NCBI GenBank assembly: GCA_016186955.1
Contig: JACPKP010000003.1
Location: 258,290 to 322,289 of the forward strand
Length of the DNA stretch: 64,000 nucleotides
Reading direction: 5' to 3'
DNA from: Candidatus Daviesbacteria bacterium
GTDB taxonomy: Bacteria; Patescibacteriota; Microgenomatia; Daviesbacterales; UBA10151
Shown here: piece after piece, positions 8,454 to 41,735 of the stretch
Position numbering within the stretch: the stretch's first letter is position 1
Layout of the letters: every line of letters begins with the position of its first letter
The notes under the pieces: generated by a model
What the model was told of the DNA's origin: nothing
What the model saw: only the letters and a program-made list of their open reading frames with translations
Database searches by the model: none
Position numbers and translations under genes: made by a program

Positions 8454-8846
8454 TTGCTTCAACAAAAAGATGATATAATCTCTGATTGGTCTACCCTAGG
8501 AGGAGAAAGCATAGAAGGTGAAAATGCTCAAGCTGCATTCTTGCGGGTAGTGAAAGAACTTCTTAGCATTGAGCTTAAAATGAAACAGATTTATCCTGTT
8601 TATGACTATTTTCATAACACTCTGGGTAAAATTAATTATGTATTCTACGCTGAAGTTAAAAAATCTTTAGACTTCAATCCTTTAAAAGAGAATATTTCAT
8701 CATCTTGGGTTACTTTTTCAGATACTTTAAAACTTCTATTTTCTGTTCATACCAAACAGGATGTAATAGTGGGAGAAAGGGTTATACACTTAAAAGAGCG
8801 CCAAGATGAAGCCAGCCAACAGCTTGACACCCTCCGGGTGTATTAG
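8454..8846 (+). CDS. hypothetical protein (130 aa), possibly degenerate Nudix-like; C-terminal codons lie inside repeat B
   Basis: weak REx2EExG-like LRVVKELLSIELK; last 7 codons (QLDTLRVY) are encoded by repeat copy starting 8826. Confidence 0.3.
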   Translation: MLQQKDDIISDWSTLGGESIEGENAQAAFLRVVKELLSIELKMKQIYPVYDYFHNTLGKINYVFYAEVKKSLDFNPLKENISSSWVTFSDTLKLLFSVHTKQDVIVGERVIHLKERQDEASQQLDTLRVY

Positions 8847-8916
8847 CCATGCACTACGAAGAGTGCATGGCCCTGAACCCCTAGTGGTTCATGGGCTTTC
8901 CACCTTCTCTTTGGGT
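8826..8916. repeat. 91-bp dispersed repeat B copy 1 (three internal hairpins)
   Basis: identical to 9486-9576: tgacaccctccgggtgtattagccatgcactacgaagagtgcatggccctgaacccctagtggttcatgggctttccaccttctctttggg. Confidence 0.9.
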
Positions 8917-9485: not shown

Positions 9486-9576
9486 TGACACCCTCCGGGT
9501 GTATTAGCCATGCACTACGAAGAGTGCATGGCCCTGAACCCCTAGTGGTTCATGGGCTTTCCACCTTCTCTTTGGG
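9486..9576. repeat. 91-bp dispersed repeat B copy 2
   Basis: 100% identical to 8826-8916; partial copy of its 3' end at 4453-4472. Confidence 0.9.
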
Positions 9577-21515: not shown

Positions 21516-22448
21516 ATGTTAAAACTATTTAACTCACTTTCGCGCAAAATTGAGGAGTTTGTTCCGCTTAATCCCCCAAAAGTTGGCGTATATGCCTGCG
21601 GGCCCACTGTTTATGACTTCGCCCATATCGGAAACTTAAGGAGTTTTGTAATGTATGATATTTTGCGCAGGGTTCTGGAAGCAGATGGGTATGAAGTAAC
21701 TTTTGTAGAAAACATCACGGATATTGATGACAAAATTATTAAAAAAGCCAAAGAAAAAAACCTGGATATGGCAGAATTTACAAAGCAGTATACGGAATAT
21801 TTCTTGGAAGACTTAAACAAACTAAATATAAAACTTCCTGATGTCCAGCCCAAAGCGACTGAGCATATCAGCCTGATGGTTAAATATATAGAGGTTTTAC
21901 TAGACAAAGGGTTGGCTTATGCCGAAAAAGACGGGTCGGTATATTTTGACATCTCAAAATTTCCGGATTATGGAAAATTATCCGGGGTTGAAAAACGCGA
22001 GCTTAAAACAGGGACCAGGGTGCTTTCGGATGAATACACAAAAGAAAATATCCAGGATTTTGCACTATGGAAAGGAGTTGAGGCGGATGAGTTTGGTTGG
22101 GACAGCCCCTGGGGAAAAGGCAGGCCGGGCTGGCATATCGAATGTTCGGTGATGAGCCAAAAGTATTTGGGTGATACCCTGGACATCCATGCAGGAGGAA
22201 TAGATTTGATGTTTCCCCATCATGAAAACGAAATTGCCCAATCAGAGGGAAAAACAGGCAAACTATTTGCCAAATTTTTTGTTCATGGCGAACATCTTTT
22301 GGTTGATGCCCAAAAGATGAGTAAATCCTTAAATAATTTTTATACATTAAAGGACATTGAGGAGAAAGGCCTGCCTGCCCTGCCCTGCCGGCAGGCGGGC
22401 GGCAGGCAGGGTTTTGATGCCTTGGCTTACCGCTTCGTGAAATGGTGA
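21516..22448 (+). CDS. cysS: cysteine--tRNA ligase, N-terminal catalytic part (gene apparently interrupted by frameshift near 22440)
   Basis: HIGN (HIGH) and KMSKS class I motifs; stops after GC-rich palindromic insertion. Confidence 0.85.
   Translation: MLKLFNSLSRKIEEFVPLNPPKVGVYACGPTVYDFAHIGNLRSFVMYDILRRVLEADGYEVTFVENITDIDDKIIKKAKEKNLDMAEFTKQYTEYFLEDLNKLNIKLPDVQPKATEHISLMVKYIEVLLDKGLAYAEKDGSVYFDISKFPDYGKLSGVEKRELKTGTRVLSDEYTKENIQDFALWKGVEADEFGWDSPWGKGRPGWHIECSVMSQKYLGDTLDIHAGGIDLMFPHHENEIAQSEGKTGKLFAKFFVHGEHLLVDAQKMSKSLNNFYTLKDIEEKGLPALPCRQAGGRQGFDALAYRFVKW
22370..22410. repeat. GC-rich palindromic element inside cysS
   Basis: cctgcctgccctgccctgccggcaggcgggcggcaggcagg; same family as 40205-40244; coordinates +/-1. 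Confidence 0.85.
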
Positions 22449-22807
22449 GGGATTGGGAGAAGCCAAAAATTGGCTGCGCCCAGTATGAAGAAGATTTTTT
22501 TAAAGCGCTGGACAACGACTTAAACACACCTCAAGCCTTGGCTGTTATGTGGTATTTAATCAAATCCGATTACCCTACTTCCGCAAAGGCAGAAAGCCTG
22601 CTCAAGATGGACAAAGTTTTGGGGCTTGGGCTTGATAAATATTTGGGTAAACAAATTGATGTACCCGGTCAAGTACAGAAATTGGTTGATGAAAGGGAAC
22701 AGGCTAGAAAAGACCGCGATTTTGAAAAATCCGACCAGCTTAGAAAAAGAATAAAAGATATGGGATTTGAGATAGAGGATACACCTGAAGGTCCAAAAAT
22801 CAGATGA
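22442..22807 (+). CDS. cysS: cysteine--tRNA ligase, C-terminal part in different frame
   Basis: DNDLNTPQALAVMW matches CysS anticodon-binding helix motif; overlaps 5' ORF by 7 nt. Confidence 0.75.
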   Translation: MVRDWEKPKIGCAQYEEDFFKALDNDLNTPQALAVMWYLIKSDYPTSAKAESLLKMDKVLGLGLDKYLGKQIDVPGQVQKLVDEREQARKDRDFEKSDQLRKRIKDMGFEIEDTPEGPKIR

Positions 22808-22922: not shown

Positions 22923-22947
22923 TTTGAAAGAATAACCCTACGCACGC

Positions 22948-22970
22948 AAGGCGTCCCCTTTTGAGGCTAA
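22948..22970. repeat. 23-bp direct repeat copy 1 (with left and right extensions 22934-22981)
   Basis: aaggcgtccccttttgaggctaa; right extension encodes C-terminus IEDG-stop of transposase. Confidence 0.85.
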
Positions 22971-23647
22971 CCATCCTCAATTATGATATTTTGTATTTCC
23001 AATAGATCATCACTTTTTTCAACAAAAGCCTTGTACGATAGGGTAGGGTTTGTTTTTGAGAAATATGCCAATACCTCTTGTGGTTTGACCCAATCTGTTT
23101 TTCTTATTTCTAAGTACTCGGGGTAAGAAGACGGTTGCCCCTGCAAGGCGTCCCCTTTTGAGGCTAAAGCCTGTTTATGGATGTATTTGGACAGGTAAAC
23201 GAATTGTTGGTCAGTAACAACATTAACAGCTTTGTATACATCTTGATATAATCCGCCTACTCGTTTGTATTTACGGTTAAAATACATAGTGTATCTAGTG
23301 CAAAGGGAATTCATGAATTTGTCAATGGATTGTGCACTTCTTTGTTTGATCAAGAAATGGAAATGGTTCGGCATCAAACAATACGCCAATAAATTAATCT
23401 CGTCAGCAAAATTATTTAAACGGAGTAATTGTAAAATTTTTGCCCGTTCCTTATAAGAAATATTGGGATCAGACAATTTTTTCTTTAAATCAGTTTCGTT
23501 TTTGGGAAGCAAGTATTCCTTTAGATAATACAAAAAAACACCATAGTCTTGTTGGTCTGAAAAGATTAATCTTTTTTCAACTCCACGATTATAAATATGG
23601 TAATAACTATTTTCTAAGTATTGTTTATTTGAATTACGTGAAGGCAC
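22967..23647 (-). CDS. REP-associated tyrosine transposase (RAYT) / IS200-family Y1 HUH transposase
   Basis: YHIYNRG N-terminus, HUH motif LMPNHFHFLI, GGLYQ and KYIHKQ tyrosine motifs; 226 aa. Confidence 0.75.
   Translation of the reverse strand: MPSRNSNKQYLENSYYHIYNRGVEKRLIFSDQQDYGVFLYYLKEYLLPKNETDLKKKLSDPNISYKERAKILQLLRLNNFADEINLLAYCLMPNHFHFLIKQRSAQSIDKFMNSLCTRYTMYFNRKYKRVGGLYQDVYKAVNVVTDQQFVYLSKYIHKQALASKGDALQGQPSSYPEYLEIRKTDWVKPQEVLAYFSKTNPTLSYKAFVEKSDDLLEIQNIIIEDG
23145..23167. repeat. 23-bp repeat copy 2, in-frame inside transposase ORF
   Basis: encodes LASKGDAL on minus strand. Confidence 0.85.
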
Positions 23648-23696
23648 GTTGTGTTAATAGCATACTTAATTTTAAATTGCAAGCTTCTACGATCAC

Positions 23697-23719
23697 AAGG
23701 CGTCCCCTTTTGAGGCTAA
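23697..23719. repeat. 23-bp repeat copy 3 (+ right extension to 23730)
   Basis: cacaaggcgtccccttttgaggctaaccatcctcaat. Confidence 0.85.
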
Positions 23720-23730
23720 CCATCCTCAAT

Positions 23731-23759
23731 TTGACACGGGGTAACTATTATGGGATAAT
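23731..23759 (+). promoter_or_regulatory. sigma70-like promoter TTGACA-N17-GATAAT for exonuclease gene
   Basis: -35 abuts the repeat right flank; -10 ends 6 nt before ATG 23766. Confidence 0.45.
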
Positions 23760-23765
23760 GTTAAA

Positions 23766-24413
23766 ATGAAGGAAGAGCAATCTTTAGCTGAAAAGCGGCA
23801 GTTAATTTACGACCGTGGCCGGGAAATAGTGATGAATGCCCCTCAGCTTTATGTAGACGTAGATGTTGAAGCTGATGGGATAGCAGGTTATGGATCAATG
23901 CTATCCATAGGCGCCCAAAGCCCTACAGGTGAAGCGTTCTATAGTGAAATTAAACCTTTATTTGAAGAATTCATTCCAGGTAACAGGAAATTTTGCGAAG
24001 ATCATAATTTATCTCATGAACGTTTATTATTAGAGGCTTCGGATTATCAGAGTGTTATGGGTAATTTTTACAAATGGATTGAAGGATTAAAAAAAGCGGA
24101 TATTGGAAAATCCGCTGTATTTACAGCATTTAATGCGGCGTATGATTGGGCTTTTATTGATTTATATTTTACAAAAGCCGGATTTGAAAATCCCTTTGGC
24201 ATCGCCCCTTTTGATTTAAAATCACTGGCTTTACCGTTGACAGGGAATTGGGATTGGAAAATGACCTCTAAAAGCAGGTTACCAAGCATTATTATACCGG
24301 ATGGGGATTTTACCCACCATGCTTTAGAAGATGCCCAATACCAACAAAAACTGCATTTTGGTATGGCAGGATTATTAGGAAAAAGAAACTATCTCGATAT
24401 CGCCCATTATTAA
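23766..24413 (+). CDS. DEDDh-family 3'-5' exonuclease (DnaQ/RNase T-like)
   Basis: Exo I YVDVDVEADG, Exo II FNAAYDWAFID, Exo III HHALEDAQ. Confidence 0.7.
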   Translation: MKEEQSLAEKRQLIYDRGREIVMNAPQLYVDVDVEADGIAGYGSMLSIGAQSPTGEAFYSEIKPLFEEFIPGNRKFCEDHNLSHERLLLEASDYQSVMGNFYKWIEGLKKADIGKSAVFTAFNAAYDWAFIDLYFTKAGFENPFGIAPFDLKSLALPLTGNWDWKMTSKSRLPSIIIPDGDFTHHALEDAQYQQKLHFGMAGLLGKRNYLDIAHY

Positions 24414-24425
24414 CCCTACGCACGT

Positions 24426-24448
24426 AAGGCGTCCCCTTTTGAGGCTAA
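24426..24448. repeat. 23-bp repeat copy 4 (+ left extension from 24412 overlapping exonuclease stop codon)
   Basis: aaccctacgcacgtaaggcgtccccttttgaggctaa. Confidence 0.85.
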
Positions 24449-24458
24449 AAAATAATGC

Positions 24459-24782
24459 TTGACAAAACGCATTAATTATAAGATCATACTAACCATGGCA
24501 GAATGTAAATTTGATTGTCCGAATATAGATAATTGTCCACAATTAAAAGGTCAATGCCCTGCTTTTCCTACTGATACAACTGAAAGTGCCCTAGATTGGT
24601 GTAACCAGGTAGTTTCAGGGCGGAAGCAAGTCACTGAGCAGGTGGTAAGGAGAGAAGAAGTTATCGGCAGAAACCCTTTATTCCATAGTTTTACTGACAG
24701 TAGGATAGTTGGCAGACATACCCGGAAAATTTTTTTGGACGGCGATGTGGATGATTTGGAGCCTGACGATTATTTGAAATGA
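24459..24782 (+). CDS. Cys-rich small hypothetical protein (107 aa)
   Basis: ORF only. Confidence 0.3.
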   Translation: MTKRINYKIILTMAECKFDCPNIDNCPQLKGQCPAFPTDTTESALDWCNQVVSGRKQVTEQVVRREEVIGRNPLFHSFTDSRIVGRHTRKIFLDGDVDDLEPDDYLK

Positions 24783-29476: not shown

Positions 29477-30025
29477 ATGTCAAATTTATCAGACCAGTTG
29501 AAAAATGCTCTGTCTTCAGTAATTTCCGGGACAGGTGATGTAGTTGCAACTACGAGGGATGTTGCCAAAGAAAATGCAATTGGGGTCTTACATGCAGGAG
29601 GTGACATGGCTATGGCAACAGGAGATCTGGTAACCGATGGAGTTAAGGTTGTTTCGGAGGTAGGCGTTTCTGTGACAGAAGGGGTAGTGGGTTTGGTGAC
29701 TGGTGTCATTGAGGGCGCTAAAGAAGTAGGTGCAGATTTAGGGGGTATTACCCTAAGTGCTACCCATGGAGCGATTAAGGGCGCTTCTGAAGTAGGTGCG
29801 GATTTGGGGGAGACTGCAGTTTCCGCTGTGGATGGGTCTATTAAAGCGGCGGATGCGGTAGGAGCTGATGTAGGGGAGCTCGCCAAACATGCAGTGATGG
29901 GAGCCTTAAAAGCCTCAGACGAAATAGGATCAGAAGCAGGTGATTTAGTGCGTAAAGCGCTACTTAATGCCGCAGCGCTTCCGCATGATGTCATTGACGC
30001 CCTTCTGACCGGTAAAACAGATTAA
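29477..30025 (+). CDS. G/A/V-rich internally repetitive hypothetical protein (182 aa)
   Basis: ~25-aa repeats (GAKEVGADLGG.../GASEVGADLGE.../AADAVGADVGE...); locally GC-richer; antisense ORF 29449-29994 considered artefact. Confidence 0.4.
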   Translation: MSNLSDQLKNALSSVISGTGDVVATTRDVAKENAIGVLHAGGDMAMATGDLVTDGVKVVSEVGVSVTEGVVGLVTGVIEGAKEVGADLGGITLSATHGAIKGASEVGADLGETAVSAVDGSIKAADAVGADVGELAKHAVMGALKASDEIGSEAGDLVRKALLNAAALPHDVIDALLTGKTD

Positions 30026-40186: not shown

Positions 40187-41197
40187 ATGCTCAAAAACCA
40201 AAAAGGCCGTGCCTGCCCTGTCCGTCCGGCAGGCTGGCGGCAGGTAGGATTTGCTCCAATAATTTTGATAGTAGCTTTAGTAGTTTTAGTAGGAACTGGA
40301 GTATTTGTGTGGAGATCACAAAAGAATTCGACAACCCCATCTTCAACCCCGTCACCAACATTACCTACTAATATACCAGCAGAAGCCAAAACTTTGGTTC
40401 AACTAGCAATTAATGAAGCGGCCAAACAAGCTTTAGTAGATCCTAGCAAAGTGCAAATAATCAGTGTTGAAAAAATGGAGTGGTCAGATGGTAGTCTCGG
40501 TTGTCCTAAGCCTGGAATGGCGTATACCCAAGCCATAGTTTCTGGTTATTTGATTACCCTTGAGGTCACTGGCAGGCGTTTAGAGTATCACACAGACAAT
40601 GGCCAATTATTGGAACTTTGTAGTCAAAGCCAAACTTCAGATATTTCTAGTTGGAAAACATTTACTACCCCAGGAATAAATTCTGGCCTTATGCTTAAAT
40701 ACCCCCAAAATTGGTATTTTAAAGACTATGAACCGGCAACTCAAAAGGCTCACGCTCTTTACCAAAATGAACCATTTGATAGTCAAGATAATATTTCAAC
40801 CAAGGATGGCCTAATATTTGGAGAAATAAAAGTTATGACCACAGAAGCAATAAGAGGTTTAGAGTGGGCCAAGATCAAAGAACCAGAATTCTACAATCCT
40901 AATAGTGATTTTTGGTTAAAAGGAAGTGGTATAGGTGGCGGTCCTGGTTTCACTCAAGATATACCCACAGAAATCAAATTAGGCAGCAGACGAGCCATCC
41001 TACAAAGAACCTATCCTGATAAATCCTACGAATTTGTCTATCCTGACCAAATTACAAATAATTACTATGCTTATTTAGGAAATAGTTCAAATGAAGTTTT
41101 AATGATTTCTTTGACTTACGATCAGAAAAATCCAAAAGCAAAAAATGATTTAGATACTTTTGACCAAATCCTCTCCACCTTTAAATTCACAAATTGA
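40187..41197 (+). CDS. membrane-anchored hypothetical protein (336 aa) with GC-rich palindrome in N-terminal codons
   Basis: TM IILIVALVVLVGTGVFVW; true start may lie downstream of palindrome. Confidence 0.45.
   Translation: MLKNQKGRACPVRPAGWRQVGFAPIILIVALVVLVGTGVFVWRSQKNSTTPSSTPSPTLPTNIPAEAKTLVQLAINEAAKQALVDPSKVQIISVEKMEWSDGSLGCPKPGMAYTQAIVSGYLITLEVTGRRLEYHTDNGQLLELCSQSQTSDISSWKTFTTPGINSGLMLKYPQNWYFKDYEPATQKAHALYQNEPFDSQDNISTKDGLIFGEIKVMTTEAIRGLEWAKIKEPEFYNPNSDFWLKGSGIGGGPGFTQDIPTEIKLGSRRAILQRTYPDKSYEFVYPDQITNNYYAYLGNSSNEVLMISLTYDQKNPKAKNDLDTFDQILSTFKFTN
40205..40244. repeat. GC-rich palindromic element, second copy of cysS-type
   Basis: gtgcctgccctgtccgtccggcaggctggcggcagg. Confidence 0.85.
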
Positions 41198-41272
41198 AAA
41201 CTATGATTAAAAAACCTCTAATTCTCATTATAATTATCTTTTTTAGTACTATTTTACTGTCATTTCAGAAAA

Positions 41273-41362
41273 CCCCAGCTTTTTAAAGCTGGGGATGAAT
41301 GAAATTATGGATTCCCGCCTTCGCGGGAATGACAGGAAGATGCACCGCTTTTTAAAGCGGTG
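41273..41362. repeat. three consecutive hairpins in 535-bp non-coding region
   Basis: ccccagctttttaaagctgggg; tcccgccttcgcggga; caccgctttttaaagcggtg. Confidence 0.7.
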
Positions 41363-41735
41363 TAGATTCACTTTTGTATTTAGGGTTAAGACTAAGTTGT
41401 AATGCAGTTTTAATATTAAGAACCCATAAGGAGGGATACAAGATTAACTTAATTAACCAGTACCAATATAATGACCCTTATGAACCCATAAATTGTGGTT
41501 CAATACTTATGATTGCCACTGAGTAAACGTATCGGATTGAATGCTCCATTAATGGTATTTGAGTCTATGGCTTTACACACAAAGCATCATTAAATGCTAC
41601 AAGCATTGATGATAACAATGGAGGCAGAACTGAGCTTAACCAAGACGGGGAAGTTATTTAAGAAGTAAGCCCTTGAACTCCTTAAATTAAAATCCAATTG
41701 TTGACTGACTTGATAATAAAAGTGGTACTATTAAA

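Follow-up and report, generated by a model that had tools for sequence, protein, structure and literature searches.

Two palindromic elements in the window

The window analysed here is a stretch of 64,000 nucleotides (nt) from Candidatus Daviesbacteria (assembly GCA_016186955.1, contig JACPKP010000003.1), and it carries two copies of a GC-rich palindromic element of 41 nt, named Q, one within the gene cysS and the other near the start of open reading frame (ORF) 40187 (Table 1). The assignment to Candidatus Daviesbacteria (Microgenomates), as indicated by CysS and the ORF 40187 protein, agrees with the preliminary description of this DNA, which had considered a lineage resembling the Candidate Phyla Radiation (CPR). 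Both GC-rich palindromes reported there within ORFs were present, and they are the two longest GC-rich islands of the window, the element having ~80% GC against 40% for the window. A 19-nt core pattern with at most 3 mismatches matched these 2 sites only in the 64 kb, where shuffled sequences lead one to expect 0.01, and a profile built from 39 external copies returned the same two sites only, both on the + strand (E = 7e-13 for copy 1 and 2e-10 for copy 2). A third candidate at 1117-1136 was rejected, being a native SHMT motif (GLDLPSGGHLTHG).

The near-perfect palindrome of ~40 bp that had been described applies to copy 1, which is made of 10-nt terminal inverted arms CCTGCCTGCC and GGCAGGCAGG around a 21-nt inner hairpin and folds strongly (-38.8 kcal/mol and z -3.4 as RNA, -19.8 kcal/mol as DNA). 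It does not apply to copy 2, whose fold is lost and is no better than that of shuffled sequence (z -0.75 as RNA and -0.3 as DNA). Copy 1 is identical at 41/41 positions to the Q subvariant 'CCCTGCC', which occurs exactly in 11 unrelated metagenome contigs, while copy 2 matches the consensus of the subvariant 'TCCGTCC' at 38/41 positions with 3 substitutions, and one of its two junction alignments places a 1-nt insertion of G in the left arm, the frame being kept. The two copies therefore descend from different Q subvariants, copy 1 being young or intact and copy 2 decaying. The earlier limits of copy 2 (40205-40244, codons 5-18 of ORF 40187) were revised to those in Table 1, as the element covers codons 7/8-21 and encodes RACPVRPAGWRQVG (codons 8-21).

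Each of the two genes has gained 42 nt net from a unit of 41 nt, in cysS through an extra G at 22411, and both insertion sites have the form AAAGG|...|(G/A)TTT. The reading phases differ, with G-LPALPCRQAGGRQ-G in cysS against G-RACPVRPAGWRQVG-F in ORF 40187, which pointed to an element acting at the level of DNA and not to a protein motif. Homologues of ORF 40187 have only a short tail ahead of the membrane helix; this ORF matched no Pfam family, and the database holds no close orthologue besides the protein itself. The sequence of copy 2 was recovered, identical, in independent assemblies of SRR12113420 and SRR12113422, and cysS with the left part of the element in those of SRR12113430 and SRR12113424.

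Table 1 Coordinates of the element copies and associated features in the window
Feature	Position	Strand	Basis or remark
Element copy 1	22370..22410	+	Q, subvariant 'CCCTGCC', inside cysS, read as LPALPCRQAGGRQ
Element copy 2	40207..40248	+	Decayed Q, subvariant 'TCCGTCC', in the N-terminal tail of ORF 40187
cysS 5' part, 310 codons	21516..22448	+	Pfam tRNA-synt_1e, E = 1.7e-112
cysS 3' part, different frame, DALR and anticodon-binding domains	22433..22807	+	Pfam DALR_2, CysS_C
Junction of the ~82-nt out-of-frame deletion in cysS	22430..22437		Protein and DNA alignments to orthologues
ORF 40187, hypothetical membrane-anchored protein HYW46_02200	40187..41197	+	Exact protein on record; hosts copy 2
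IS200-like Y1 transposase ORF (Y1_Tnp)	22967-23647	-	Pfam; 560 nt downstream of cysS

Insertion and frame break in cysS

The orthologues of CysS confirm the earlier proposal that the extra segment is an insertion. Among the 120 closest of them, 115 have nothing inserted and run uninterrupted through ...EEKG-FDP... (the KMSKS-based script left 2 of the 115 unscored), and alignment to a solved CysRS (8qhp) leaves a gap at the element, downstream of the KMSKS motif, consistent with a loop. Four other orthologues have an insert too, at precisely the glycine codon where the window cysS has its own, reading LPAGRQG or MPAGRQG in three and LPAGPLRRSFSEASRQG in one. The DNA of the short insert is a perfect 20-nt palindrome, named P, plus one G, and the fourth orthologue has the same arms with a different inner hairpin of ~30 nt. 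Of the two refuting outcomes named earlier, orthologues sharing the segment without palindromic DNA and these two copies alone genome-wide, neither was observed. The element is thus a genuine insertion.

In a neighbour-joining tree of CysS, the five carriers are scattered and the nearest relatives of each are insert-free. Recent recombination spreading one cysS allele was rejected, as the carriers differ at flanking synonymous sites. The scatter of the carriers and their unlike synonymous sites imply either a hotspot that was hit several times or an old insertion that was often lost precisely. Besides, the assembly CAZFVS01 (loci L003 and L130), deposited as 'uncultured Gammaproteobacteria', holds the closest Daviesbacteria-type cysS (81% to the window); this lacks the cysS insert, but another gene of the assembly contains, in frame, a P variant of 29 nt (DLPALTAGRQG).

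The 5' part of cysS encodes the catalytic domain through KMSKS, then the element, FDALAYRF and a premature stop. Its residues 1-292 are 81% identical to the nearest orthologue, of which residues 321-444 map by tblastn to 22433-22804 in another frame. The element is translated ahead of the frame break, as had been described, but the break itself is a separate out-of-frame deletion of ~82 nt situated 25 nt downstream, by which ~27 codons (LVLTAHYRDKLNFTW...ALNN) of the conserved LTAHYR...NALNN segment are gone. No second cysS was found in the 64-kb window, and neither the two cysS ORFs nor the Y1 ORF has a protein on record. In sister runs, the Logan contigs assembled from short reads end within the palindrome or at the D1 repeat (described below), so that they gave no independent confirmation of the deletion. 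The split of cysS may reflect a fault of the assembly, a minority allele or a genuine pseudogene.

Anatomy of the element family

The family is defined by the 10-nt terminal inverted arms CCTGCCTGCC ... GGCAGGCAGG, which are constant and enclose an inner part of 0 nt, 21 nt, ~30 nt or another hairpin altogether. P (CCTGCCTGCCGGCAGGCAGG) is the minimal member, a 20-nt perfect palindrome consisting of the two arms alone, whereas Q, of the form CCTGCCTGCCCTG(C/T)CC(G/T)(T/G)CCGGCAGGCGGGCGGCAGGCAGG, has the same arms and the 21-nt inner hairpin. Scanning of metagenomes with the inner part of the window element gave 72 loci, most of which hold the full Q, and Q copies stand in unrelated flanks in dozens of unrelated metagenome contigs with GC contents of 0.34-0.65. 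Three exact Q subvariants dominate with 14, 11 and 7 copies, of which the second corresponds to copy 1 and the third, with three substitutions, to copy 2. Within a contig, variants such as the CATGCCTACC and CCTGCCTACC forms breed true, and nested and merged forms were seen, including P within the centre of P. The arms are always of one length rather than forming a ladder. Rfam gave no family overlapping the element, either in the window or across 18 loci. A longer element with the same ends would show as a consistent pair of arms 50-6000 nt apart; the fetched loci contained none, and the idea that the copies are solo ends of a longer transposon was rejected on this ground. A viral contig ends (L055, 3916-4125) in more than 10 head-to-tail units of 21 nt, each a P variant (CATGCCTACCGGCAGGCAGG) plus C.

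Distribution across bacteria and viruses

The element is spread across phyla and viral contigs, so that its core palindrome is not specific to one lineage, a point beyond the preliminary description. A scan for the two arms with a gap of 0-30 nt was run on viral contigs and on one genome per species, and the abundance and taxonomic range of P given here are lower bounds. Among viral contigs there were 55 loci, with exact P at 42 sites in 35 loci of 36-72% GC and unrelated flanks. In the species genomes, exact P occurred at no fewer than 102 sites in at least 99 loci, among the at least 119 loci listed. Chance or low complexity was rejected as an explanation on the basis of the shuffles and of two composition-matched control palindromes, which gave 0 hits each.

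By record title, the genome loci listed belong to the CPR groups Parcubacteria, Saccharibacteria, WWE3, Peregrinibacteria, Uhrbacteria, Doudnabacteria, Wolfebacteria, Daviesbacteria, Giovannonibacteria and Yanofskybacteria, and also to Omnitrophota, Planctomycetota, Thermodesulfovibrionales, Elusimicrobia, Ignavibacteria and Bacteroidota. P is present in cultured Bacteroidota as well, namely Winogradskyella echinorum KCTC 22026, Flagellimonas yonaguniensis, Longitalea luteola, Flavivirga sp., Aquiflexum lacus, Aestuariivivens sediminis and Agriterribacter humi. Judged by their names, some contigs (tig..., contig_...) and one complete-chromosome record suggest that long-read assemblies are among the carriers. 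P was found in 0 of 50,697 cultured phage genomes, and 72,556 plasmids gave no full-length match, all hits covering <80% of the 42-nt query and the top-ranked ones reaching ~85% identity over 28 nt.

Insertion sites

Insertion is precise and free of duplication. In three loci (L157, L099 and L051) a filled and an empty tRNA stand together, an intact tRNA lying beside a 5' fragment of the same tRNA that is interrupted by P, and in all 3 pairs the filled copy is longer by 20 nt precisely and shows no duplication. About 11 of the 145 exact P sites lie in or beside tRNA genes, typically in the D-loop. Flanking direct repeats were at chance level save at a few sites in tandem repeats, with no 2-nt duplication. 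The flank statistics contained no strong target motif, the sole preference being at position -1 (A 41%, G 27% over 140 sites); purine-tract enrichment was modest, and the 5' flank of coding cases is typically AAAAGG or AAAGA. For Q copies the right-flank table is unreliable owing to a pattern error. P stands at the centre of a pre-existing inverted repeat about three times as often as control positions do: complementary flanks pair over 6 nt or more at 14% of P sites and at 5% of the controls (p = 4e-5). Some copies have short tandem duplications beside them (L017, L110, L154 and L156) or deletions (L006).

Apart from these, small GIY-YIG nuclease genes lie in L099 (2090-2470) and L051 (500-870) between the intact tRNA and its upstream duplicate, which is the first ~30 nt of the tRNA with P in the D-loop. 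Cassette-free versions of this layout were observed in L063, L090 and L157.

Persistence in coding sequences

Most exact P copies from the genome scan are intergenic in AT-rich loci, and Q, together with P in the same contigs, lies within long read-through ORFs of AT-rich loci. In coding DNA the element persists in frame with a strong phase bias, one phase being used in 22 of 26 distinct in-frame cases (binomial p = 1e-7). As the 41-nt unit also recurs in dozens of contigs, the earlier idea of a family inserted in frame into coding sequences holds. The favoured phase gives x-LPAGRQ-x for P and LPAARLP(A/D)GQGRQ or LPAL(PC/SV)RQAGGRQ for the two orientations of Q, and the occurrence of both orientations argues against insertion via the host mRNA. 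The encoded peptides are 7-14 residues long, and surviving coding copies keep the frame because the element plus 1 nt makes 21, 42 or 51 nt. Translation in frame into a small additional loop of the protein is probably what lets the element survive inside essential genes, and we infer that the phase bias and the loop location result from selection.

According to Pfam, the hosts are ordinary housekeeping proteins, in contigs that resemble those of the CPR, and include RecF, TatD, a type II secretion system ATPase, ATP-dependent DNA ligase, Obg-like and YchF GTPases, PheS, ThrS, a ProS-like class II synthetase and a sugar dehydratase. TatD aligned to a solved structure leaves a gap of ~14 residues at the element. 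The paralogues of L192, and likewise the orthologous DNA ligases of L181 and L184, differ at one and the same site in that one member has P and its counterpart Q, and among 120 Daviesbacteria DNA ligases the P/Q-derived peptides fall at two separate sites. The ligase of L181 (768-3623) is of the Daviesbacteria ATP-dependent type, with 952 residues, what appears to be a large intein-like insertion, and P near the C-terminus; related hits with Pfam intein or LAGLIDADG domains are P0244, P0267 and P0268.

Neighbouring genes and other repeats

When the ORFs lying up to 3 kb from the element were clustered all against all, no family was shared by more than 4 of ~170 loci. GIY-YIG genes adjoin only a handful of copies. 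Y1 ORFs occur in 9 of the ~250 element-bearing loci, a mild enrichment, and 4 of them lie <600 nt from the element. In the window, four copies of a repeat, D1 (22938-24460), bracket the Y1 ORF together with the gene next to it. In D1 an invariant 23-nt core, AAGGCGTCCCCTTTTGAGGCTAA, follows CTACG, and D1 looks like a REP-like repeat (see below) belonging to the RAYT-type gene of the window. The Y1 genes of L243, L094 and L232 are likewise flanked by other hairpins of their own, and in L243 the element sits within the Y1 ORF.

A second hairpin word, GGATTCCCGC-N4-GCGGGAATGAC, was observed at no fewer than 120 loci in viral contigs. The window holds an intergenic hairpin of this word (GGATTCCCGCCTTCGCGGGAATGAC, 41310-41335) downstream of ORF 40187, with neighbours at 41272-41298 and 41343-41365, and P is nested in the loops of second-word relatives in L167, L079, L137 and L091. 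Peptides that presumably derive from other GC-rich hairpins occur in a variable linker of Daviesbacteria DNA ligases; among them ...DSRLRGND..., present in some of these ligases, looks derived from the second word, which, going by the peptide, may likewise be translated in frame. Further repeats of the window are two 91-nt copies 661 nt apart and 100% identical (8825-8915 and 9486-9576), a pair at 8913 and 10073 with 87% identity, and three copies with a 66-nt period and 64-80% identity inside a coding region (29701-29876).

Interpretation and alternatives

The two window sequences are, in our judgement, likely to be copies of a mobile DNA element that is ultra-short, non-autonomous and palindromic. 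Copying would be templated by existing copies, which is inferred because subvariants breed true, and an enzyme acting in trans may recognise the arms or the hairpin and do the copying, while phages and other mobile DNA could ferry the element between phyla. Coding copies would be translated as a tolerated extra loop and then either stay intact, as copy 1 may have, or decay by point mutation like copy 2. The strong hairpins may also destabilise their surroundings and provoke local slippage, which might account for the adjacent duplications and deletions and plausibly for the 82-nt deletion in cysS.

Several observations weigh against this interpretation. No candidate for a mobilising enzyme recurs near the element in the loci analysed, and the apparent low copy number per genome (2 in 64 kb, and each long contig once among the matches listed) is not what a proliferating repeat would usually show. 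Ordinary vertical decay hardly accounts for letter-perfect identity across phyla, which might mean a process that specifies the sequence rather than copy-and-paste. The recurrence at one cysS codon could reflect an ancient insertion with many precise losses, and the phase bias could come from targeting instead of selection. No insertion event was caught as a filled/empty polymorphism inside one population, none having been examined that way, and the taxon labels are as deposited, some third-party labels of metagenome-assembled genomes being unreliable.

The main alternative to a mobile element is a break-repair patch, in which P is written at breaks or nicked hairpin loops and not copied. A widespread enzyme would add the fixed 10-nt tail CCTGCCTGCC to each 3' end, so that two capped ends when joined form a perfect palindrome, or would ligate a fixed 20-bp blunt duplex. 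Such a patch would suit the perfect palindrome without target duplication and with the same sequence whatever the host, the enrichment at hairpin centres and tRNA D-loops, some of these sites lying beside GIY-YIG cassettes, the nested P-in-P forms, and the deletions or short duplications beside some copies (L006, the window cysS, L017 and L110). However, the fixed arm length without a ladder speaks against it, Q with its three exact subvariants and the members with unrelated inner hairpins need a template, and the variants breed true; we know of no enzyme of this kind and regard the patch as improbable. Comparably unlikely is that P and Q are repetitive extragenic palindromes (REP) moved by the IS200-like Y1 (RAYT-type) transposase of the window. 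The nearness of the Y1_Tnp ORF to cysS, the Y1 ORFs in other loci with element copies, and a hairpin without target duplication, as in single-strand HUH transposition, would fit such an origin. Yet it is the different D1 repeat that flanks the window Y1 gene, other Y1 genes have their own hairpins, the ORF in L243 merely hosts the element, and most copies have no Y1 gene nearby. Besides, the GTAG/CGTC tag of REP elements is absent over 140 sites, and the copies appear to be few and are often intragenic.

Selection of the hairpin as a regulatory or structural signal, for instance a site for protein binding, a terminator or an RNA-stability element, with its spread due to convergence or to horizontal transfer of carrier genes, would be in keeping with the exact conservation, the strong fold and the many intergenic copies among other hairpins. 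It is nevertheless very improbable, as tRNA D-loops and essential coding sequences are interrupted, copy 2 has lost its fold with no sign of constraint, orthologues manage without the element and no Rfam family covers it; moreover, the unrelated flanks mean that gene transfer cannot explain the spread. An artefact of sequencing, assembly or synthetic DNA could be suspected from the same 20-mer in very different samples and from short-read contigs that break inside the element. The chance of this is negligible, since the net lengths in essential genes are in frame and phase biased, decayed and variant copies exist, and the flanks are contiguous in the filled/empty tRNA pairs. The element also occurs in isolate genomes, in independent read sets and in assemblies from several different pipelines, and it is missing from the cultured phage genomes and, at full length, from the plasmids.

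A bolder extension of the mobile-element interpretation, which we regard as possible but rather doubtful, is that P and Q are the smallest mobile DNA yet seen, inserted precisely and without target duplication into hairpin loops, tRNA D-loops and coding DNA by a sequence-specific activity that is common to, or shuttled between, CPR, Bacteroidota, Omnitrophota, Planctomycetota and viruses, and that they are one of several cross-phylum hairpin words remodelling the proteins of reduced genomes.

Significance

Unexplained protein insertions are common in the CPR. If the mobile-element interpretation is correct, selfish palindromes translated in essential genes, as in Rickettsia, extend to this radiation, and a 20-nt sequence behaves as a horizontally spreading element across phyla, the puzzle being what writes it; co-occurrence among genomes could then reveal the responsible enzyme. 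Such elements would break short-read assemblies and create apparent frameshifts or pseudogenes, cysS here being a case, and would bring spurious low-complexity peptides such as LPAGRQ into protein databases. They could also mark DNA that environmental bacteria and their viruses have exchanged recently.

Comparison with known systems

A literature search, with subscription journals outside its coverage, found no description of the DNA or peptides of the element, and topic searches gave analogues only. The element resembles miniature inverted-repeat transposable elements in its conserved terminal inverted repeats, variable interior, non-autonomy and occasional in-frame fusions, but its 20-nt minimal member is far smaller, it makes no target-site duplication and no parent insertion sequence was found in the fetched loci. 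In the mitochondria of sponges and of Nematomorpha, repetitive hairpin-forming elements and coding palindromes, respectively, are reportedly also hairpin repeats that invade genomes including coding regions, though they are organellar and lineage-restricted and have other sequences and sizes.

REP elements carry a GTAG or CGTC tetranucleotide tag (PMC3733652). Like REP and REPIN sequences, the element is a palindrome of 20-40 nt that forms a single-strand hairpin, leaves no target duplication and has a Y1 gene nearby. Unlike them, it has no such tag, does not flank the Y1 gene and is not species-specific; the window has 2 copies in 64 kb, both intragenic, which suggests a low copy number.

A close likeness in behaviour, already pointed out in the preliminary description, is to the Rickettsia palindromic elements (RPE), which are confined to Rickettsia, measure ~100-150 bp, encode a peptide of ~50 residues and lie inside housekeeping ORFs (PMC10969869). 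As with RPE, a palindromic selfish repeat stands in frame in unrelated housekeeping genes, is translated as a conserved peptide, is judged compatible with the host protein fold, and coexists with other element families in a reduced genome. The element is not itself an RPE, being 20-41 nt against ~150, coding for 7-14 residues, perfectly or nearly perfectly palindromic, outside Rickettsia, and letter-perfect across phyla and viral contigs; this distinction is drawn by size and host. The GC clusters of yeast mitochondria (e.g. GC42) are mobile, GC-rich hairpins of ~40 nt which merge and are horizontally exchanged by a mechanism that is unknown (PMC4478555). The element shares with them a GC-rich hairpin of ~40 nt in an AT-rich genome, nesting and merging, and horizontal exchange. 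Theirs, however, is a mitochondrial and mostly intergenic setting with a putative AG target-site duplication, while the element occurs in bacteria and phages, without duplication and with many in-frame genic copies. On the best reading of these analogies, the element would belong to neither the RPE nor the yeast GC cluster family, though it behaves like both.

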